A stretch of 64,000 nt of DNA, taken from positions 27,094,001 through 27,158,000 of the forward strand of contig OX597842.1 of the NCBI GenBank assembly GCA_951406725.2, in the 5' to 3' direction. The notes below the pieces were generated by a model. The model worked only from the letters and a program-made list of their open reading frames with translations. It had not been told where the DNA came from and did not search any database. A program made the position numbers and the translations under genes. This document shows, piece by piece, positions 4,403 to 64,000 of the stretch. Origin of the DNA: Octopus vulgaris. Its lineage: Eukaryota. How positions within the stretch are numbered: position 1 is the stretch's first letter; every line of letters starts with the position of its first letter.

Positions 4403-4592
4403 TGCCAGCATGGAAAATGGGTGTTCAGCGATGATTAATCTTTACTGTAGGTACCCGCATGATATGTGGGTACACACATGTCTGTCTGTTTGTCTTGTAA
4501 TACAGTTATTACAAATCTCCTTCAATGCAACTGTATACAATAATTTCATTATTATTATTATTTTTAAAACTTCCATGCTTCCTGAGATTCGC

Positions 4593-4637
4593 CAACTATG
4601 GTCTTTGCGGCACCTGACGTCTCTCTACCTCAACGAC
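4593..4637 (+). CDS. CNOT6: CNOT6 LRR exon, surviving 5' fragment (QLWSLRHLTSLYLND)
   Basis: Matches the first CNOT6 LRR (LWSLTHLTALHLxDN type) and is in frame with 4713-4824. Flanked on both sides by CR1 3'UTR sequence. Confidence 0.75.
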
Positions 4638-4712
4638 AAGCATGTATTTGACTCATACATTATTCACTTTCCAGACATTTGTATATAACTGCATACACCT
4701 TATACACACTTT

Positions 4713-4824
4713 CTGCCATCGGAGCTTGGGGATCTCTCACTGATGCGTCAACTTCTCCTCAACAACAACTTTCTCCGTAATCTGCCGTTTGAACTCGGTA
4801 AATTGTTCCAGCTACAAACACTTG
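4713..4824 (+). CDS. CNOT6: CCR4/CNOT6 deadenylase, intact 3' part of an LRR exon (LPSELGDLSLMRQLLLNNNFLRNLPFELGKLFQLQTL-G)
   Basis: Translation matches the CNOT6/CCR4 LRR, including the characteristic LPFELGKLFQLQTLG. Ends in donor G|GTGAGT at 4824/4825, phase 1. Confidence 0.9.
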
Positions 4825-5026
4825 GTGAGTACCTTTCTGCTTGTTTTGCTTTGCATTGCCACGGCCCTGTTGGCCACAGTGGCACAGCCCGTGATGTTTG
4901 TTACATATTTAATATTTAACATATAGCACATACAGTGAGTGTGTATATATATGTGTATGCATATACCTACATATGTGCATGCACACACGCATCTCCCTCT
5001 CTCTCTCTCATATATATAACATATAA

Positions 5027-19732: not shown

Positions 19733-19831
19733 GTCTGCAGGGAAATCCATTGTCTCCAGATATTTTAAATCGTTACAATGAACCAAACGGGACTCAAAAG
19801 CTACTCAGCTACATGTTGGATCACTTAGCAC
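19733..19831 (+). CDS. CNOT6: CNOT6 exon, LRR cap (G-LQGNPLSPDILNRYNEPNGTQKLLSYMLDHLA)
   Basis: Pyrimidine tract plus CAG acceptor at 19730-19732 and donor C|GTAAGT at 19831/19832. The phase-1 start completes the Gly codon from 4824. Matches the CNOT6 LKGNPLxxDILxLYxEPDGTxxLLxYxLD segment. Confidence 0.92.
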
Positions 19832-45888: not shown

Positions 45889-46600
45889 GTATGTATAAAA
45901 CTAAAGCCAGTGTATTCCTGCTGAATCCGTTCTACCGTGGTTGGTACCCGTGCGTATCTTTCAACACAGCTACTGCTGTTCCTGTATACACACAAGTCTA
46001 CAACATCACACAAACATACATACATACATATATACACACGCTCACGAGCGCACGCTGTCTTTCTTCGTCTCTATTCGAACCCGTGCGTACAATATAATCA
46101 TTTGGCTACGTTCCCCCGACTGTCGATCGCAAGAAGCAGAAAAAAAAAAAAGAGACGCGAAAACGAAACGATCCCCCCCCACCAAAAGCATCCATCCATC
46201 CATCCATCCATCTTCAAGATACCCGTAATTATTTTAAAACAGGACAAGCAAAGCGCACAAAAAAGTTCCGTTTTCATTCATTCATTCATTCATTCATTCA
46301 TTCATTGTTGTTCCTCTTTCTTCTTGTCTGCAAAACAGCGGTCGCGTGTTCAATTCGGACGAGCTCCACAATCAAAGGAAGAACTGAAAAAAAAAAAATA
46401 TATATGAAAGCCGAGTTGCTGCGTTGTGACTATCATCCTTCGTCTTGGATAATTTCTTTACCTGGATTGTTGTTGTTTTGAGGAGAAAAAAAAATTGCAA
46501 ACAAAACGAAAAGGATCTTGTTTAACCTTTCACCTTTGACCTCCATTCTTTTTCTTTAATTCTTATCTGTGGACAGGGTATTATTAGGTCAGTTGAAGAG
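44780..46600 (+). promoter_or_regulatory. Putative internal promoter / non-coding first exon region
   Basis: CpG dinucleotides retained and SINEs absent. CCAAT 44855-44859, GTCAGGTGAC 44877-44886, TGATGTCA 44892-44899, duplicated CGGTCACTCACACTCG near 45126-45160, candidate donor AG|GTCAGT at 46587/46588. Confidence 0.4.
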
Positions 46601-50864: not shown

Positions 50865-51833
50865 GTGTGTGTATATATATAATAAAACACACACACACAC
50901 TATACATACATAGACACATACACACACACAAATGACATGCATTTACGCTTATGTTTATATACACACATAAAAACACACACACACGCACGCACGCACGCAC
51001 TCACCCATAGACTCAAACCCACACGCACTCACATCACTGTCATCCTAACAACAGAGAACCAGTCACACCCCACCCCCTCGATATCACCTTCAATGGTTTG
51101 TCTGACTGGTTTTTCTTTTCCTTTTTGTTTTTGTGTTTTTTTCCTCCTCACCCTCCTCCTCCACCTCCTCCTCCTCCCGCTCACATTTCTCTATGGTTTT
51201 CTCACAGCCCCTCTAAACACCACCACCACCACCATATTTATTTATTTGTCTTTCTGTTTCCCCTCTGTTGCTTTTCCTTCCTAGCTTGTTCTTGTTCTCT
51301 CTCTCTCTCTCTCTCGTCTTACCTAGTCTTTTCACAACTGGAACATAAACCACACCACACCACACTGCACCAGTTTACACTTCAGCTACACTCTACACCT
51401 CTGACCACCACAGTTATTAAACACTCCACGAGCGAAAACACCACAGCAGCGCTCTCTCTCTCTCTGTCCACAACACCTCACCACCAAGTTACGATAGAGA
51501 ACCACACACAACACTGTGATACAAAACGCCACAGCCCTCTACTCTACTCTACACCGCATCACAAATTTCTGAAGAAACTATTCGCTTCACCCAGCCTGCC
51601 AATGGGGTAAATTGCAATCAAAAATTTGACTTTTGTAATATTTTCTCACAGTTCAGATTACTCTGGGGTCGGCATTTTAACCCTTGATTTACCAGTGTGC
51701 CTACAGGGATCCGTTCGAATAAGTATCAGTTATGTTCTAGGATTTCTGTGTATCTTCAAGCCACCCAATTCTTTTTGAAAGTATCTGTGGCCCTAAAATC
51801 ATACCAGGTGCGAAGGTTGGAAAACAGACAGCC

Positions 51834-53366
51834 ATGGGAAAAAACGGGGCCAGTTTCCCGAGGAAGAACCTGGATTCTTTCTGCTCCTCATCGTCCTCTG
51901 TCGAGATTATAAGCGAAGAGAAGTTCTGTAAGAGGACGAAGAATTCTGCATCCTCGTCTCAGCCATTGCTGTCGGCATGTTCAAATTGTTACAAGGAGCG
52001 AACAAAGTCGACAGGGAGCCGGCGGCACAGGCGTCATAAACAGGTGAAGTCTAACTCGCCGATAATTATTTGCCTCAAAGACTCGTTAGATGCTGCCCGC
52101 AGGTTGAAGCAGAAGGATGAGAGGGTGTATGATAAAGATTGCCAAGCTTCTACAACGACAAGAAATATTATTACTACTACTACAAGGGACAATGTTGGTG
52201 CTGGTCCAATTTATTCCAGGTTCCAAGAAGACAAAGGTAAAAAACTCCAGGCCCTCTTGTCTGAGATAGAAAAGCCCAACCAAAACGAAGCTTGTGGGAA
52301 TATTGTAAAGAATCTAGATTTGGACACCGGGCAGTTGTGCTCGGCCTGCCAGAATTTGAACTCGTCCAGTCACGTACTTAACAATGCACCGCACCGCACC
52401 AGGCGTAACGAGCGGTCAAGTCGGTCGTTGCACCACTTTCAGCATAGCAAAGGAACGAACAATGTTGACGTGATTCGGAATGACTTATTTAGGGGTGATG
52501 GTCACGACGCCAACCCTGACTCGGAAGCTGCTGAGTACGAAGACACGTCTTCTATCTCTTCGAGCTCGGACAGCAGCAATGCATACGAATGCGACAGCAT
52601 GCCTCGTTCTAGAGGTAACTGCATGTCCATCCACGACGCACCTTGTTGCAGAAGGATACCCCAGAAAATAGCTTATGGGGACTCCCTTGAGAAATTGGCG
52701 CAATTCACCACTGGTGCACCTCTGTATTGTTATGGGTCGGGCCTGCAGTACAGGTGTTCTATGCAGGTGTCGAACCCCTGGTACCAGGAAGGGTACCACC
52801 ACAGCAACAACAGCAATCTGGAGGAGTACCAGTATCATGTCAGTAACAGAAGCTTTGAGGAGTACCCCTACGCTGACCATAATGCCAGAACCCCTCCTGC
52901 TATCGTCTCAGTCAGCGCAGAAGATGCAGGTCTGTCGTCGGACTTCTCGACAACCGACCATGATTCCAACAGGGAGTCGGAGTCACCGCTGACCAGTGTG
53001 GACGAAGGGGACGCCGACAGCAACAGTGAGATCGATAATAATCCGGACTCTGAAAACCACCAGTGCGTCGACTGTGTCTACGTTGATCTTACCGACACTG
53101 ATGTCACTTTCTCGGTTTACTACCATGAAAATCTATTCCAGCTCTACAACAGCTACAAGGAAAAAAAGAAACAGAGGAGGGCCGCTTCTTGGGCCATCCC
53201 CTCCTGGGGCACGCCGCTGGGCTTCACAAATGCCTCCTCGTCCTACTACCCTTACACCACCTCATGGCCGTGGCCCTATTGGTCCTCCATGTTCTTCCCG
53301 AACAGTTCGCTGCCCAAAACGGTGATGATACCCCCAAAAGAGCTAAAGAAATGTAAGTCAAATTAA
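51834..53366 (+). CDS. 510-aa orphan ORF, Ser/Asp/Asn-rich and probably disordered; likely a large coding exon spliced at 53352
   Basis: The only long non-repetitive ORF. GCCATGG Kozak context, upstream in-frame stop at 51738, GC-richer coding-like composition, consensus donor T|GTAAGT at 53352/53353. Confidence 0.75.
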   Translation: MGKNGASFPRKNLDSFCSSSSSVEIISEEKFCKRTKNSASSSQPLLSACSNCYKERTKSTGSRRHRRHKQVKSNSPIIICLKDSLDAARRLKQKDERVYDKDCQASTTTRNIITTTTRDNVGAGPIYSRFQEDKGKKLQALLSEIEKPNQNEACGNIVKNLDLDTGQLCSACQNLNSSSHVLNNAPHRTRRNERSSRSLHHFQHSKGTNNVDVIRNDLFRGDGHDANPDSEAAEYEDTSSISSSSDSSNAYECDSMPRSRGNCMSIHDAPCCRRIPQKIAYGDSLEKLAQFTTGAPLYCYGSGLQYRCSMQVSNPWYQEGYHHSNNSNLEEYQYHVSNRSFEEYPYADHNARTPPAIVSVSAEDAGLSSDFSTTDHDSNRESESPLTSVDEGDADSNSEIDNNPDSENHQCVDCVYVDLTDTDVTFSVYYHENLFQLYNSYKEKKKQRRAASWAIPSWGTPLGFTNASSSYYPYTTSWPWPYWSSMFFPNSSLPKTVMIPPKELKKCKSN

Positions 53367-53760
53367 AACTTTGTTAATCGTTATCATCATTAAAATGCCT
53401 AGTGGTGTTTCATCCACCTTTATGTTCTGGGTTCAAATTTCTCTGAGGTCAACTTTTCCTTTCAACCTTTTGGGGTCGATAAAATAAGTACCAGTTGTCA
53501 ATGTAATCGCTTTAATCCCTTCCCCTAGAATTTCTGGCCTTGTGCCAAAATTAGAAACCAATATATAAGAAAGTACCAGTTACATGCTGGGGGTCAATGT
53601 AATCAACTTAAGCCCTTCTCCTAGAATTTCTGGCCTTGTGCCAAAATTAGAAACCAATATATAAGAAAGTACCAGTTACATGCTGGGGTCAATGTAATCA
53701 ACTTAAGCCCTTCTCCTAGAATTACTGGCCTTGTGCCAAAATTAGAAACCAATATATATA

Positions 53761-54360
53761 GGCGTAGGAGTGGCTGTGTGGTAAGTAGCTTGCTAACCAA
53801 CCACATGGTTCAGGGTTCAGTCCCAGGCGCAGGAGTGGCTATGTGGTAAGTAGCTTGTCTACCAACCACATGGTTCCGGGTTCAATCCCAGGCGCAGGAG
53901 TGGCTGTGTGGTAAGTAGCTTGCTAACCAACCACATGGTTCCGGGTTCAATCCCAGGCGCAGGAGTGGCTGTGTGGTAAATAGCTTGTCTACCAACCACA
54001 TGGTTCCGGGTTCAGTCCCACTGCGTGGCATCTTGGGCAAGTGTCTTCTGCTATAGCCCCGGGCCGACCAATGCCTTGTGAGTGGATTTGGTAGACGGAA
54101 ACTGAAAGAAGCCTGTCGTATATATGTATATATATATATATGTATGTTTGTGTGTCTGTGTTTGTCTCCCTAGCATTGCTTGACAACCGATGCTGGTGTG
54201 TTTACATCCCAGTCACTTAGCGGTTCGGCAAAAGAGACTGATATAATAAGTACTGGGCTTACAAAGAATAAGTCCCGGGGTCGACTTGCTCGACTAAAGG
54301 CGGTGCTCCAGCATGGCCGCAGTCAAATGACTGAAACAAGTAAAAGAGAAAAAGAAAAGA
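53761..54360 (+). mobile_element. SINE family A with four tandem 65-bp tRNA-like heads
   Basis: Heads start at 53761, 53826, 53891 and 53956; only the last continues into the body. Confidence 0.85.
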
Positions 54361-54996
54361 TATAAGAAAGTACCAGTTACGTGCTGGGGTGAATGTAATC
54401 GACTTAATCCCTTCCCCCAAATTTGAAGCCTTGTACTTCCAGTAGAAAGAATGATTATTATTATTATTATTATTATTAGGTAGTGAGCTGGCAGAGTTGT
54501 TAGCACACCGGGCGAAATCTGTCTTTATGCTCTGAGTTCAAATTCCACCGTGGTCGACTTTGCATTTCACTCTTTCAGGGTAGATAAATTAAGTACCAGT
54601 GAAACACTGGGGTCGATGTAATCGACTAGTTTCATTGCTCCCCCTCCCCTCAAAAATTTCAGGCCTTGTGTCTTTAGTAGAAAAGATTATTATAATTATT
54701 TTAAAGCGGCGAGCTTGCAGACTCGTTAGCACACCAGGTGAAATGCTTAGTGGTATTTTGTCTGCCTTCATGTTCCGAGTTCAAATTCTGCTGAGGATCC
54801 TCTAAGTTCACATTCCTCCAGGGTCGCTTTTGCCTTCTGTCCTTTCAGCGTTAATAAATTATCAGTCAAGTACTGGGTTGATATAATTGACTTACCCTCT
54901 CCCCCCCAAATTCCTGGCCTTGTGCCTATAGTAGGTAGGATTATTATTACTATTATTATTGTATCACTGAGGTCAACTTTGCCGTTCATCCTTTTT

Positions 54997-55380
54997 CATC
55001 ATCATCATCGTTTAACGTCCGTTCTCCATACTGGCATGGGTTGGACGGTTCGACCGGGGGTCTGGGAAGCCAGGAGGCTGCACCAGCCTCCAGTCTAATC
55101 TGGCAGAGTTTCTACAGCTGGATGCCCTTCCTAACGCCAACCACTCCGTGAGTGTAGTGGGTGCTTTTTACATGCCACCGGCACAGGTGCCAGGCGAGGC
55201 TGGCAACGGCCACAATTCGGATGGTGCTTTTTACATGCCACCGGCACGGAAGCCAGTCGAGGCGGCGTTGGCAACGGCCACGATCAGATTGGTGCTTTTT
55301 ACGTGCCACTGGCATGGAGGCCAGGCGAGGCTGGCAACGGCCACGATCGAGTTGGTGCTTTTTACGTGCCACCGGCACCT
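54997..55380 (-). mobile_element. Family C copy inserted into a SINE B core
   Basis: (CAT)n tail, core and tandem units; SINE B core is split around it. Confidence 0.75.
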
Positions 55381-55478
55381 TTTTGGTTGATAAAATAAGT
55401 ACCAGTTGAACACTGGGGTCGATGTAATCTACTTAGTCACTTCCCCAAAATTACCCCCCCTTGTTGAAAAATCTGAAT

Positions 55479-55513
<35 letters not shown>

Positions 55514-55896
55514 TCCTCCTTGGCTAAGCCCTCATAAATTCCTAAGTTTTGCTTGAAAAGGAAGGCGAGAGGAAAAGAAGGAAGTGTTACCTCCCAGCAA
55601 GTTTGTTGAAAGATTAGTGAATGTGGGTGGCAAGAATGGTTTGAACGAATGCGTTTGCTCTAAGTATGTACCTGTGAATTGAAAGGAAGCAATATGGAGA
55701 GGGCACTTGCCCTGTTTGTCAGGATATCCATGGTTTTGTGGGGTTTTTACTGGCAGCCCTAGGAATTCTCTCCCTTCGCTGGAATTTATTTTATTGTTTT
55801 TTTACCCTTTACGCACTTCCTCACGTAACCCCACATTGTATTGTCCAGTATTGTCCCTGATGTTTTTTAGTGAACCCTTTGTGATGAATAAAGAAA

Positions 55897-56015
<119 letters not shown>

Positions 56016-58598
56016 AGGTGGCGAGATGGCAAAATCATTGGAATGCCACACAAAATGCTTAGTGGCATTTTGTCCATCATGGTTCTGAGTTCAAATTCTG
56101 TTGGGGGCTGACTTTACTTTTCATCATTTCGAGGTCAATAAATACCAGCTGAGTATTGGGCTCGATGTATTGGACTACCCCCTCCCCCCACATTTCAGGC
56201 CTTGTGCCTAGAGTAGAAAGGATCATCATCATCATCATCATTATTATTATTATTATTATTGAGTGGGAGAGCAGTTCATGCCATCAAAGTGACACTGGGG
56301 TAAAATATACGAAGCCCAGTATACCCATCATGACTACCCGTCTGATAAGGGTACACCAGGCACATGCATCACAACCATATGTGCGCGACATGGTGATCTC
56401 ATATCAAGATAAACAGTGCATGACCTTGCAGGTAGGGCCCAGTTAGAATTTTCTTCTGGTCGAGTAGCCCATCCCACTCAAAAGGTCCCATTATTATTAT
56501 TATTATTATTATGGCGAGCGAGCAGAATCATTAGGAAAGGCATCCAGCTATAGGAATCATGCCACCACTGGCAATTAGGGTCAGGACAGCCCCTTGTCAA
56601 ACCATCCAACCCATACAAACATAGAGAGCGCTTGTTTAAACAATGATGATATCCTAGCTCCTTGCATTTTAAGTTCAAACCCAGTTGAATTGCATTCTTT
56701 TCTCTTTTTTTCTCTTTTGATCTTTTTCTCTTTTTGTGTGAAATATGTTCACACCCTTGTGAGTAATAATTTTCCATTAAAAACAAATTGATATCATTAT
56801 GAGAACCTCGTCTGTGCACATTCCTGCTTTTGGGCCTTTGTGCAATTAGCCATAAAACTTACATCATCGATCTCGAAATTGCTGGTCTTGGAACAAATAC
56901 TAGCTTTTCCTTGTTTCAGTCACTGGACCGTGACCATGCTGGGGCATCATCTTGAGTGGTTTTAGTCAAATTAATTAACCCCGGTACTTCTTTGTTTTTT
57001 TCTCTCTCTGTAAATCTGATACTCGTCTTTTTCATTCTCTTTTGCTGAACTGCTAAGTTATGGGAGTCATAAACAAACCAACATTGGTTGACAAGTGCTG
57101 GAAATGATACACACACGACACATACACGCACACACCACACGCACACACACACCACATGCACACACACACCACACACACAGGCTGCAGCACAGTTTCCTTT
57201 TATCAAATTCACTCCCAAGGCATTGATCAACCCTGCAGGCAGAAACAGCCATGCTGGAGCACCATCTTGAAGAGTCTTAATCAAACAAATCGACCCCAGG
57301 ATGTATTTCTTAATCGTAGTACTTATTTTATTGGTCCCTTTTGTTAAAGCGCTAAGTTACGGAGATGTAAACACACCAACACCGGTTGTTAAGTGGTGAT
57401 GGGAGGAAACACAGACTCACACACTGATATATAATATATATATATATATATACAATGGGCTTCTTTCAGTTTCCATTTACCAAATCCACTCACAAGGCTT
57501 TGGTAGGCCCAAGGCTACAGTAGAAGGCACTTGCCCAAGATGCCTCACTGTGGGACTGAACCTGGAACCATTTGGTTGGGAAGCAAGCTTCTTACCATGT
57601 CAGTACCCATATATATAAACACTTGCAACAGGATGGATTTTACTAAAAGCATTCAAGGGTCCAGATGAAGGTTTAAATTTCACACTGTAAAGCAAATACT
57701 GTCCCCTATCAATGGGTTTTCAGCACGGTGTCTCCCTCTCAGTGTTGGGTCAGCTTGACCAGTAAGATATGTGTTTCACTTCAGAGTTCAGTCTTAGCTG
57801 ACATCTACACAACCCCCTTGGTCAATTGTAAATAAGGACCTGCAAACTGGAGCTGGGTTAGACCCGTAGTGTAGTGGAAGGGGACAAGCAGTACTTGTAA
57901 TTTAGCCCTTTAGCTTTTAGACTGATCAGATTAGATCTTTTAAATTAGGGGTTCTCGACCATTTTCTATCTATGGACCCCTTTGATTACTATTTTATTCT
58001 GGTGGACTCCTCAAAGCCGTTAAATATTTAACCCTTTGGAATTTAGACTGGCCATATCTGACTCAAATATTGTACCAGTATTATGTTCAACATGGCCATA
58101 TCTGACCTCTCACACCTACCCTACAATGTCATTCTAAAAATCAAGTTACCTCATCAAAATCTCAAAGCTACAAGATGATACACGATTAATTCAAAGCAAT
58201 GTGAATAAATAAGTCTTACTTTCGACAGAATAATCTGAATGGTAAATGGTTTAAACTGACCATATTTGGCCAAAATATTGTATTTGTTTTACGTTCAAAA
58301 TGACCAAATCTTGCCTCTCACACAAACCCTATCATATTCTGGAAATGAAAAATTGTCTCATCAAAATCCCAAAGCTATGAGATAATGCATGATTAATTCA
58401 AAACAAGGTGAATAAATAAGCATTACTTTTGATAGAATAATGTGACTACTAACGAGTTAAAAACTAGTTTTATTGAAAGTTATTTCCTAATTCCTAATTT
58501 TTTTTCACACATTAACTTGTGTAGGTTGAACTATGTAAAAACATCTGAGAAAGAAACCTTAGCTGTTTCTTGCAAAACATGCCAATACATACATTTAA

Positions 58599-60082
58599 CC
58601 CTTTCGTTATTGTATTTCTTTTGAGATGCTCTGTGTTTCTTTCAATTAATTTTAAATATAACAAAGAATTTAGTAAAATATCTTAGTTATCATTAAGCTA
58701 GTGTTAGGAACATAAATTGTGACTAAGGTTTGGTGGAAGATTTTAATTCAGAACTTATGAAAACAAGACATTTGTACTCAGAACCAGAGGTGGTTTCAGC
58801 CAGGTTGGTATCAAAAGGGTTAAGAATTGTTTCTCTATTATATATTTTAACCCTTTTGTTACCATATTTCTGTTGAGATGCTCTGTGTTTCTTTCAATTA
58901 ATTTTAAATATAACAAAGAATTTAGTCAAATAACTTAGTTATCATTAAGCTAGTGTTAGGAACATAAATTGTGACTAAGGTTTGGTGGAAGATTCTAATT
59001 CAAAACTTAAGAAAAAGAGAACATTTGTACTACAGAGCCAGAGCCGGTTTCAGCCAGGTTGGTATCAAAAGGGTTAAGAATTGTTTCTCTATCATATATT
59101 TTAACCCTTTTGTCACCATATTTCTGTTGAGATGTTCTGTTTCTTTCAGCTAATTTTAAATATAACAAAGAATTTAGTAAAATAACTTTGTTATCATTAA
59201 GCTAGTAATAGGAACGTAAATTGTGACTAAGGTTTGGTGGAAGATTTTAATTCAAAACTTATGAAAACAAGACATTTGTACTACAGAGCCAAGGCCGGTT
59301 TTAGCCAGGTTGGTAATGAATGGGTTAAAGCAAAGTCTTTTCAGGAGCCCTTAAAATACTATTGTAGGATCCCAAATTTACTATTTTGCTTGCATGAACC
59401 CCCTTTGGTTACTTTTTTTAAAAAATCTTAGTGGACCCCCATAGCTATTTTATGTTTAAAAACTAGTTTAAAGAAACTTCTTTCAAAATTCCTATTTTGT
59501 ATTTCACACATTAACCTGTGTAGGTTGCACTATATAAAATGTTAGAATATTTTCAGAGGCTCTTAACCCTTTCAATACCAACCTGGCTGAAACCACCTCT
59601 GGCTCTGTAGTACAAATGTCTTGTTTTCATAAGTTTTGAATTAAAATCTTCCACCAAACCTTAGTCACAATTTATGTTCCTTACACTAGCTTAATGATAA
59701 CTAAGTTATTTGACTAAATTCTTTGTTATATTTAAAATTAATTGAAAGAAACACAGAGCATCTCAACAGAAATATGGTAACGAAAGGGTTAAAATATATA
59801 ATAGAGAAACAATTCTTAACCCTTTTGATACCAACTCGGCTGAAACCATCTTTGGCTCTGTAGTACAAATGTATTATTTTCATAAGTTTTGAATTAAAAT
59901 CTTCCACCAAACCTTAGTCACAATTTATGTTCCTAACACTAGCTTAACGATAACTAAATTATTTGACTAAATTCTTTGTTATATTTAAAATTAATTGAAA
60001 GAAACACAGAGCATCTCAACAGAAATACAATAACAAAAGGGCTAAAATATATAATAGAGAAACAATTCTTAACCCTTTTGAT
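58599..60082. mobile_element. Array of piggyBac-type MITEs: three forward, two reverse plus a stub
   Basis: Units of about 221 bp bounded by TTAA-CCC...GGG-TTAA at 58599-58819, 58851-59073, 59105-59324 and, inverted, 59567-59788, 59820-60041. Confidence 0.85.
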
Positions 60083-61009
60083 GAAAGGCAAAGTCGACCT
60101 TGGCGGAATTTGAACTCAGAACGTAACGGCAGACGAAATACCGCTAAGCATTTCGCCTGGCGTGCTAACGATTCTGCCAGCTCGCCGCCTTCATCCTATC
60201 TTACAACCACCCTAGCTCCACTATCACTACCAAAAACTGTCAGTGGATTCAGTTCCCACTCTGACTATTCTGGGTCTATTATAACTACCAAACGACTGTC
60301 ACAAGTCCAGTACTGTCCTACAACCATTCTGGGCCTATTGTCACTATCAAACGGCTGTCAATGGGTACAGTTTCTAATTTATGACTGACCATCCTCAGCT
60401 TAGTCACACGAGGTGTTGTGAACATAGTTGAATTGGGGTTGAGGACGTTGTCACTTGTCTTTATGTCCATGTGTACATCAAAGATGGGGGCGGCTGTTCC
60501 ATGTAGATACATATGTATCTGTTTGTGTGAAAGAGGTCATTGTGTGTGCGTGTGTGAGAAGTGGAATGCTATAAATTCAAGAGTTCCCACAATGTATTTT
60601 TGGCGCAAATCCATTATGCGATTTTCAAGAAAAAAAAAAAGATGGAAAATCACAAAACGAATAGTGATTATTATTTTATGGTCAAAACCTCTTTTGACTT
60701 AATTTTAGCAAGGTATTAGGTGAAAGAGAAAACTGGGAGAAACAAAGAAAGAAATGAATTCTTATAAAACAAAAGGAAGGTAAAACAGCTGTTCTTCTGT
60801 ACTTTTTGGTCATACTGGAGCACCAACTTCGTAGTGTTTTACCGGGTCACTAAATTTTTTGTGGGGACATAAACAAAACGATACACACACACACCATTAG
60901 TTACAGTGTTGCTCCCTCACATTGTTGAAGCCATCAATTTGTGTTGCCCTGGTGTCTAGACAGGGCAGGTGAATACTCCCCAAGAACCAAACGCCAGTCA
61001 GTCACAGGG

Positions 61010-61393
61010 TTATACCTTTATTCTCTAGAAAAACGCCTCCGCCGTGGTGATCTCATTCTCGCTCACAACATCATAAGTGGAAAGTGTAACCTCTCGAAAG
61101 AGCTGTTCTTCACTCCTGCTCCAGAGCGTTGGCTGTGGGGTCACTCCGAAAAGCTCTATCTGTGACGATTTCATCTCAATCGAAGGAGAGGGGCTTTCTC
61201 TGTCCGGGTTGCGGATCCGTGGAATAAGCTGCCGGACGAGATAGTGAAGATGCCGACAACCGCTCGGTTCAAGGTCTCTCTTGACCACAAATGGCCTGAA
61301 CTCTTTGCATGAACACCCTCCCTGTACATAACTCCATGTCCCCCTACATGGCCTTGCTTTTTGCTTTTTGAGCCAAAAAATTAACTTAACTTA
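61010..61393 (+). mobile_element. CR1-clade LINE 3' end (second family)
   Basis: LYSLEKRLRRGDLI...GH..KL...AFSVRVADPWNKLP, short UTR and (TTAAC)n-like tail. Confidence 0.8.
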
Positions 61394-61531
61394 TACACAT
61401 TTACAGCTGAGTGGACTAAATGTAATGAAATGAAGTGTTTTGCTCAAGAACACAACTCATCATCCCACTTGGGAATTGAAACCATGATCTAACAATCATG
61501 AGTGAATCACTCGAACCACTTAGCCACACAA

Positions 61532-61689
61532 CTGTGTGGTAAGTAGCTTGCTAACCAACCACATGGTTCCGGGTTCAGTCCCACTGTGTGGCATCTTGGG
61601 CAAGTGTCTTCTGCTATAGCCCCGGGCCGACCAATGCCTTGTGAGTGGATTTGGTAGACGGAAACTGAAAGAAGCCCGTCGTGTATATG

Positions 61690-61722
<33 letters not shown>

Positions 61723-61923
61723 CTGTGTTTGTCCCCCTAGCATTGCTTGACAACCGATGCTGGTGTGTTTACGTCCCCGTCACTTAGCTGTTCGGCAAAA
61801 GAGACCGATAGAATAAGTACTGGGCTTACAAAAGAATAAGTCCCGGGGTCGATTTGCTTGACTAAAGGCGGTGCTCCAGCATGGCCGCAGTCAAAATGAC
61901 TGAAACCAGTAAAAGAGTAAAGA
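61532..61923 (+). mobile_element. SINE family A, slightly 5'-truncated
   Basis: Same family A sequence. Confidence 0.85.
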
Positions 61924-62882
61924 GCAAGTAATATCATCATCATCATCATCATCATATATATATATATATGTATATATATATATGTATAAATAAATACACA
62001 TGAACATACATGGTTGCATGTGTGTAGGTGTGAGGGTTTGTCTGTATTTACGGCTTCGTTTTCGCAAATAAATTTATCACATTTCATTTATATTTAAAAA
62101 TTTCATCATCTTTTTATTTTTGTTCTTTTTCCTTGATTACCGAACATGCACAACAAACGCACACTCACACCTTCCACACGCTGTTTATTCCATTGTTGTA
62201 AGCTCTGTGGCTACGTGCTGGCATATCATTGGCCAGTCGAGCAACTCCTGTAACGACCTCCTCCACCACCAACTCTCTCTCTCTCTCTCGTTTCCTCTGA
62301 CACACATCACTGCTAACGAGAACATGGAAGTTCACCCAGCTTGCAGATTTTATACCTGCTTATTACCTGTGTGCATTGTGGTGTGTATATTGTGTGTGTG
62401 TGTATGAGTGTATATATGTATGTCTGTATATATATGTATATGTATGAGTGTATATGTATTTATGTATGTGTTTATGTATGTATGTTTGTGTATATAAATA
62501 TGTGTGTGTATATATTTGTCTCTCTCTCTCTCTCTACACACATATATATATATATGTGTGTGTGTGTGTGTATATACGCCAGTGTGTGAATGTATATGTA
62601 TGCATGCATATATAATATGTGTGTTCAGAGGAATATATATATATATTTTTCTTGCTTCAACGATCATGTGCAATCTTCCTGGTACGCATGAGTGGACAAA
62701 TGTTAACTTTATAGACAGATTGAGTGTATATATTGACTGGAGCGACTAGGTGTAAATGTCCCATATTCAGTCATTGGGTGTTGGTCGTGGGTGGATAGTT
62801 GCTGTCTGTAGATGTTGAATGACAAGTCTCTCTCTACATTTTCACTGCATACAGAGACACGACACAGCATGTTGATACTCAC

Positions 62883-62932
<50 letters not shown>

Positions 62933-63347
62933 TGTATGTATGTATGTGTATATATATATGTATGTATGTATATATATGTATGTATGTATGTATATATATG
63001 TATGTATGTATATATATGTATGTATGTATATATATGTATGTATGTATGTATATATATGTATGTATGTATGTATATATATGTATGTATGTATATATATGTA
63101 TGTATGTATATATATATATATGTATGTATGTATGTATATATATGTATGTATGTATATATATGTATGTATGTATATATATATATGTATGTATATATATATA
63201 TGTATGTATATATATATATATGTATGTATGTATATATGTATGTATGTATATATGTATGTATGTATATATATATGTATGTATGTATGTATATATATATATA
63301 TATGTATGTATGTATATATATATATATATGTATGTATATATATATAT
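62883..63347. repeat. (TATG)n/(TA)n microsatellite
   Basis: Direct reading. Confidence 0.95.
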
Positions 63348-63558
63348 ACTCTTTACTCTTTTACTTGTTTCAGTCATTTGATTGTGGCCATGCTGGAGCA
63401 CCACTTTTAGTGAAGCAAATCGACCCCGGAACTTACTCTTTGTAAGCCCAGTACTTATTCTATCGGTCTCTTTTTGCCGAACCGCTAAGTGACGGGGATG
63501 TAAACACACCAGCATCGGTTGTCAAGCAATGCTAGGGGGACAAACACAGACACACACA

Positions 63559-63596
<38 letters not shown>

Positions 63597-63762
63597 TACG
63601 ACAGGTTTCTTTCAGTTTCCATCTACCAAATCCGCTCACAAGGCATTGGTTGGCCCGGGACTATAGCAGAAGACACTTGCCCAAGATGCCACGCAGTGGG
63701 ACTGAACCCGGAACCATGTGGTTGGTTAGCAAGCTACTTACCACACAGCCACTCCTGCGCCT
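63348..63762 (-). mobile_element. SINE family A, full length
   Basis: Same family A sequence. Confidence 0.85.
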
Positions 63763-64000
63763 ATGTATAAAATACTACAATTAGCTGTCGTTTTTGAAGG
63801 CATAGGGTCAGCTAATTGATTTGTATATCACATGACTGACCAGGCTATCAGATGTTGTTATACATCGTTGGTCATAGTGTACTTCTTGCATTGTTTTAGC
63901 CTCGAAATTAGGCCACCCTCCTGGCTATGCGTGTGACATAGTGGGTTAGGCCATTGCACTCACGATTGCTAGATCGTGGGTTCGATTCCCTGAGTGGGCA

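Follow-up and report, generated by a model that had tools for sequence, protein, structure and literature searches.

CCR4 is usually viewed as an obligate subunit of the CCR4-NOT complex, docked through its LRR, and deadenylases of the EEP type that lack an LRR as the products of separate genes. The window analysed here, a stretch of 64,000 nucleotides of octopus DNA (G000:C29:27094001-27158000, G000 being the genome searched and C29 the contig), raises the question of what a giant open reading frame is doing between the LRR exons and the nuclease exons of a CCR4/CNOT6 gene. An earlier note on this DNA, made from the sequence alone, had proposed an alternative exon that supplies an LRR-less isoform with a new N-terminus. 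The giant exon is coding and conserved, it lies within the LRR-to-nuclease intron of the sole CCR4/CNOT6 gene, and the isoform built from it very probably exists. Three features frame the argument (positions are those of the window):

19733..19831, plus strand: last LRR exon, with the phase-1 donor GCAC/GTAAGT, joining the shared exon as ...LDHLA-L-NVTQPP
51834..53352, plus strand: coding part of the giant alternative exon, 506 codons and 1 base
53353..64000 and past the window end, plus strand: 19.5-kb intron after the giant exon, leading to seven shared exons

The genome was queried with the O. bimaculoides protein in a stricter first look and, without that strictness, with the Argonauta LRR form, and both queries returned one CCR4 exon set, all on the plus strand of the contig, whose first coding exon begins about 316 bases ahead of the window start. 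The last LRR exon ends in phase 1 on the same strand as the giant exon, as the earlier note had read it, and its junction residues LAL-NVTQPP are identical in Argonauta (P0040). No nuclease exon was detected by tblastn between the last LRR exon and the giant ORF, again as the note had it, and the next CNOT6 exon, which it expected downstream of the window, was found in frame at G000:C29:27166848-27166916, 8.8 kb beyond the window end, and its first two bases finish the codon that a phase-1 donor leaves open. The seven shared linker and EEP-nuclease exons extend from C29:27166848 to about 27188093, outside the window, with GT-AG introns and intact catalytic motifs; they are downstream, in single copy and on the same strand, rather than upstream of the ORF or elsewhere, the placements that the note had set against its own proposal. 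When the giant exon is spliced onto the exon at 27166848, the junction reads KKF-NVTQPP and an open LRR-less model of 982 aa with GT-AG introns throughout is obtained; the same junction stands in the O. bimaculoides RefSeq model XP_014774950, which matches the in-frame, LRR-less product that had been predicted, and splicing from 53352 would be expected in the octopus of this window as well. Splicing of the last LRR exon to 51652, by contrast, runs into a stop after 9 codons (in-frame stop at 51738), which rules out a cassette exon following the LRR and makes the LRR and giant-exon N-termini mutually exclusive.

Two peculiarities of the shared exons may be recorded here. The last one (about G000:C29:27187830-27188093) closes with about 90 aa of low complexity, rich in Gly, Asn and Ser, and at about G000:C29:27184580-27184720 a 56-base tandem repeat duplicates the end and the GTGAGT donor of the fifth.

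The open reading frame runs on the plus strand from the ATG at 51834 to the TAA at 53364-53366 (510 aa), is single copy in the genome searched, and has both the GCCATGG start context and the phase-1 donor AAAT/GTAAGT after base 53352 (506 codons and 1 base) described earlier. Under a crude base-composition model, an open frame of 510 codons is expected by chance about 1e-7 times per window. Contigs from four public runs (X1-X4) of related animals, from two studies and with the RNA nature of the runs a guess, allowed all listed differences between these relatives and the ORF to be classified: 26 of 27 substitutions within it are synonymous and one is not, compared with a synonymous share of 34% expected for transitions (P ~1e-11). 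This purifying selection, which the earlier note had wished to see examined, confirms that the ORF is coding. The O. bimaculoides protein XP_014774950 agrees with the giant exon model at 467 of 505 N-terminal positions and at 314 of 315 in the nuclease part. Contig cover stops before the donor, at 53292 in X1 and at 53334 in X2, and no contig across the 53352 junction was seen among the four runs, a gap in cover that speaks neither for nor against the junction. A repeat occupies 53420-53500, just past the ORF stop.

Upstream of the ATG, the sequence is conserved as well:

51503..51833, plus strand: strongly conserved non-coding leader holding the acceptor-like site at 51651, likely 5' UTR or promoter-proximal sequence from an alternative first exon

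In X1, the 331 nt before the ATG carry one listed change against 25 expected at the synonymous rate, and the constraint has P ~4e-9 when two changes are allowed, in this one run. The acceptor that the earlier note had placed at 51651 is present as a sequence (TTTGAC...TTTTCTCACAG, ending at 51651), but its use is not borne out, since contigs cross it unbroken in three of the four runs (X1 51503-52241, X2 51611-51990, X4 51537-51693); none of the listed pieces of X3 spans the position. The 11-mer TTTTCTCACAG recurs at 51197-51207 as a further acceptor-like site, another lies at 51284, and two contigs reach 56 and 102 bases upstream of 51503. Because of the unbroken passage in these three runs, the acceptor looks unused and the giant exon is probably an alternative first exon, with an internal promoter that would lie upstream of about 51400; such contigs are also compatible with a pre-mRNA or DNA source and by their nature cannot show transcription starts, and the exon may instead be entered through an acceptor lying further upstream. 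Within the conserved leader, a two-codon uORF (ATG TTC TAG, 51732-51740) stands in frame 102 bases ahead of the main ATG. Further upstream, a CpG-containing, UTR-like stretch at 46100-46594 with a donor-like TAG/GTCAGT at about 46588 is a candidate non-coding first exon of the long isoform.

The N-terminus had been described as an orphan, a label that no longer applies given its homologues in mollusc, brachiopod and annelid species. Of the 843 proteins obtained with the nuclease region as query, the best 120 were listed, and 20 of these are LRR-less forms of 825-960 aa with the octopus-type N-terminus; they come from a chiton, bivalves, gastropods, Octopus, Lingula, Paralvinella and one JGI record. 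Cluster look-ups add Lamellibrachia, Bulinus and a partial Owenia gene. Judged from its sequence, the N-terminus represents a module conserved among lophotrochozoans, and molluscs, the brachiopod and annelids all carry it fused to the CCR4 nuclease. In the octopus exon it has the following parts (residue numbers in brackets):

51978..52076, plus strand: motif block 1, CxxC (C49, C52), basic patch (63-73) and PIII-L (76-81)
52239..52274, plus strand: motif block 2, predicted helix K-x3-A-x-L-x2-IEK (136-147)
52470..52487, plus strand: motif block 3, VI(C/R)NDL (213-218)
52686..52724, plus strand: motif block 4, LEKLAxFTTGxPL (285-297)
53076..53126, plus strand: motif block 5, VYVDLTDTDVTFSVYYH (415-431), the most conserved stretch
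53325..53358, plus strand: terminal motif MIPPKEL and phase-1 donor AAAT/GTAAGT, whose read-through gives C-K as in unspliced homologues

Across the homologues, about seven short conserved blocks are spaced by variable Ser/Asp/Glu-rich linkers: LEV(I/V)SxExF; CxxC with the basic patch and PIVI; a K-NFxA helix; VICNDL; ELxxLAxFTTGxP with a second CxxC; VYxDLT(D)TDV; and MIPPxEL. The basic patch of block 1 was found in all 54 homologues in which both flanking motifs were matched, and the CxxC after block 4 is present in most homologues and degenerate in Octopus. Pfam holds no family for the ORF, and none matched more than one of 51 homologues; two ESM Atlas searches gave no usable match for the N-terminus, the sole match in a PDB profile search (E 0.35) was disregarded, and no LRR family was detected in the ORF or in the long forms. 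AlphaFold predicted no globular fold, either with 14 sequences (pLDDT 38.8, pTM 0.16) or with 51 sequences and the homologue P0175 placed first (pLDDT 59.3, pTM 0.25), and the deeper run gave locally confident stretches at several conserved blocks. These observations are consistent with a disordered arm bearing binding motifs. Recruitment of PABP through a PAM2 motif was considered and rejected, as the strict pattern occurs in 0 of 68 sequences. Loose look-alikes occur in 7 and 8 of the 68, mostly in related sequences and never in Octopus; LSKNAQPF in scallop-like forms and PEFxP in snail-like forms are lineage-limited strings that do not match the strict pattern (carriers P0014, P0016, P0045, P0047; P0087, P0174, P0176, P0181, P0182, P0188, P0194, P0196).

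The nuclease to which this arm is joined is of the CCR4 type. PF03372 was matched on P0001, and the catalytic residues of the human enzyme (N195, E240, H361, D412, N414, T480, D491 and S529-H531, in the accessible text of PMC8216464) were mapped by alignment to the 982-aa model, which carries YNVL at 537, LQEV at 581, TAHIHW at 700, CGDLNS at 752, IDYI at 828 and SDH at 867, as well as TNYT. The cephalopod relative P0041 matches human CNOT6/6L at E ~1e-191 and Nocturnin, Angel and PDE12 at E 1e-23 to 1e-30, which places the long form outside these three subfamilies. The long form is a CCR4-type EEP nuclease of the orthologous gene that has no N-terminal LRR. According to the accessible portions of published work, CCR4 cannot bind CAF1 or join the complex without its LRR (PMC3870282, PMC7692201, PMC10590902), the CAF1 interface consists of LRR1 and the N-terminal extension, and a short flexible linker holds the nuclease, which makes no fixed contacts and is also active by itself (PMC8216464); the isolated domain is active in human and fission-yeast assays (PMC8216464, PMC6024076).

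We propose that the giant exon would serve as an alternative first exon, transcribed from an internal promoter and spliced onto the shared nuclease exons, and that the predicted product would be an LRR-less deadenylase of 982 aa, its nuclease left whole by an exon that joins at the linker. Such a protein would not be docked through CAF1 and would stay outside the CAF1-docked CCR4-NOT module, while its short motifs (the CxxC with the basic patch, the helices and VYxDLT) may stand in for the LRR by binding RNA or partner proteins. Because the exon joins at the linker and the nuclease is whole, the long form is most likely active, non-CAF1-docking and targeted by its motifs. CAF1 independence would follow from the published structure, catalysis without the LRR may be expected by analogy, and poly(A)-specific deadenylase activity is predicted from the shared domain. 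Given the isoform, a free enzyme of this kind is the likely mechanism, and the explanation as a whole, from alternative first exon to a deadenylase outside CCR4-NOT with its own targeting motifs, seems to us a probable one. Counting against this explanation, work in yeast by Clark in 2004 is said, by its title, to assign the LRR a separate critical role in CCR4 activity.

The conserved motifs could instead re-dock the isoform onto CCR4-NOT, through CAF1, NOT1 or an adaptor, and make it an alternative subunit. Short helical motifs in disordered regions commonly bind NOT-complex surfaces, which is in keeping with this reading. In the accessible text of the papers concerned, Pab1 binds to the isolated Ccr4 EEP domain and stimulates it, but this domain falls more than 10-fold short of the complex (PMC6024076), and fly Nocturnin, itself LRR-less, is reported to co-precipitate with CCR4-NOT (PMC4033318), so that lacking an LRR need not mean standing outside the complex. 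The N-terminus nevertheless has no LRR or LRR-like fold, and the described CAF1 interface is the very part that the long form lacks; re-docking is unlikely. Less probable still is an isoform that is mainly non-catalytic or nuclear, acting as a scaffold, as a decoy for PABP-bound tails or in nuclear RNA surveillance. The basic patch, kept in every scorable homologue, and KPRKRRR in arthropod forms are possible nuclear signals, and the LRR assists substrate binding (accessible portion of PMC8216464), but the active site is intact and common to the canonical form, and a simple NLS pattern found in 39 of 68 sequences barely exceeds shuffled ones (mean 23.7, maximum 36).

Whether the ORF is spliced at all also had to be weighed, since it might be a nested gene in its own right, one exon long and read as far as the stop at 53364. 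When 1.84 billion proteins were searched with a profile built from 14 sequences of the N-terminus alone, 60 matches were obtained, several of which are query members or close kin, and only three of them carry the nuclease; the 57 without it, together with the lack of a 53352 junction among the contigs of the four runs, would fit a nested gene. However, the nuclease-less records look like read-through products. Scoring at the terminal motif was possible in 38 of the 57 (the other 19, fragments or divergent, were left unscored), and 36 continue C-K and two C-E, as read-through of T/GTAAG or T/GTGAG would give; 0-76 unconserved residues then follow, so conservation ends at the donor. F or Y occupies the junction position in 21 of 22 spliced forms, and spliced forms occur in three phyla. 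Since all 38 scorable read-throughs end in C-K or C-E, the donor and its phase are conserved across three phyla, which also answers the earlier question about donor conservation and leaves a nested gene very improbable. Among 10 distant profile matches that were looked up, all the named ones are lophotrochozoan.

It is even less probable that the long form stems from a distinct, paralogous gene equipped with nuclease exons of its own, a reading largely refuted for the genome searched by its single exon set downstream. The only other nuclease-like match there (C13:66196794-66197084) is 32-34% identical and likely belongs to an Angel/PDE12/Nocturnin-type gene. Moreover, the long and LRR forms of one species have an identical C-terminus from the junction onwards in Gigantopelta (401 aa), Panonychus (394), Centruroides (390) and Rhipicephalus (395), the two Gigantopelta models being consecutive accessions X1/X2, and in a nuclease tree of 41 rows the long and LRR forms of a taxon fall together instead of being grouped by isoform (supports: O. 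bimaculoides-Argonauta 100/98, Mytilus 100/100, Ruditapes-Mercenaria 100/98, Paralvinella-Capitella 100/94). Full-length long forms also stand on contigs of just 3.8-5.2 kb (P0025, P0029, P0054, P0176), which would be spliced transcripts. This gene-model support comes from automated annotation. In favour of a paralogue, two long models with a long-branch nuclease lie on one contig in Bulinus (P0181, P0221), and P0176, a long form of 1018 aa, has a likewise long-branched nuclease; some snails possibly possess a dedicated fast-evolving duplicate of the long isoform.

One exon of the canonical isoform is damaged in this assembly:

4590..4826, plus strand: CNOT6 LRR exon of the canonical isoform, with its acceptor end and about 28 central codons garbled

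It has no clear acceptor, about 28 codons are replaced by about 25 unalignable ones with an in-frame TAA at about 4687, and no second copy was found in the genome searched. That this exon is truly broken in the animal, leaving the long form as its only intact CCR4, is extremely improbable in spite of these defects, because the flanking LRR exons and the remainder are near-identical to those of Argonauta and Sepia, unlikely for a dead isoform, and because the garbling looks like a local assembly or consensus error, which is probably what it is given that neighbouring exons are intact.

Compared with CCR4, CNOT6, CNOT6L and twin, the long form of the present analysis comes from the same gene, with the same nuclease exons and all catalytic motifs, but the CAF1-binding LRR is replaced by a mostly disordered, motif-bearing N-terminus of 506 aa. 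Nocturnin, Angel and PDE12 likewise have an EEP domain without an LRR and, in the accessible portions of PMC3870282 and PMC4033318, are thought to act outside CCR4-NOT; they are, however, separate genes with distant nuclease domains, whereas the LRR-less octopus protein belongs to CCR4 as one of its isoforms. The accessible text of PMC3870282 and PMC8216464 also mentions CCR4 homologues of plants that have no LRR; in plants the LRR is missing altogether, while one octopus gene appears to make both forms. Counterparts of the octopus isoform in other species stand in RefSeq/GenBank as 'uncharacterized protein LOC...' (XP_014774950, XP_041364150, XP_013381924), automated models for which no domain name or functional description was found. 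A literature search, with most subscription papers and supplements outside its scope, returned no description of an LRR-less CCR4 isoform, and the word 'isoform' is absent from the full text of PMC3870282, PMC10590902, PMC4033318 and PMC8216464 and occurs once, in an unrelated sense, in PMC7692201. The long form is a real, conserved variant of a well-known enzyme that is apparently undescribed and known so far as automated database models. A conserved LRR-less CCR4 isoform would give a second route of poly(A) shortening that bypasses CAF1 and NOT1, and with it comes an unnamed motif module common to three phyla.

Arthropods have LRR-less CCR4 models of their own. In chelicerates and Leptodora, the LRR-less N-terminus that meets the same junction is conserved as well but of a different kind, and in three Drosophila species (P0140, P0142, P0145) short Gln/His-rich LRR-less N-termini stand at the same linker. 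These models resemble the octopus form in having an alternative N-terminus at the same linker position, but homology to the lophotrochozoan module was rejected for the chelicerate and Leptodora set, with an hhalign probability of 0.24%, and arthropod N-termini are absent from the 60 profile matches. This pattern may reflect convergence on a single intron, or else a divergence too deep to be detected. The arthropod LRR-less models P0075, P0069, P0090, P0149 and P0151 share motifs of their own, namely GxCLI, GxPL and LPRxxKPRKRRR.

A broader reading may be put forward tentatively, which we hold to be possible but somewhat doubtful: in protostome CCR4 genes, the LRR-to-nuclease intron would hold a second promoter, whose product would be a deadenylase that is independent of CCR4-NOT and brings its own module for targeting. 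The lophotrochozoan module would have been kept since the split of molluscs, brachiopods and annelids, and arthropods, including Drosophila, would use other N-termini at the same junction. If the second-promoter reading were true, part of the effects of twin/CCR4 mutants now ascribed to CCR4-NOT would belong to an unrecognised free enzyme and, with LRR-less models in Drosophila species, twin alleles could be re-read according to the isoform affected. In ticks and in Gigantopelta (P0133-P0135, P0138, P0152, P0051), small extra segments are found between the LRR and the nuclease, and this intron therefore seems to be a hotspot of isoform variation.
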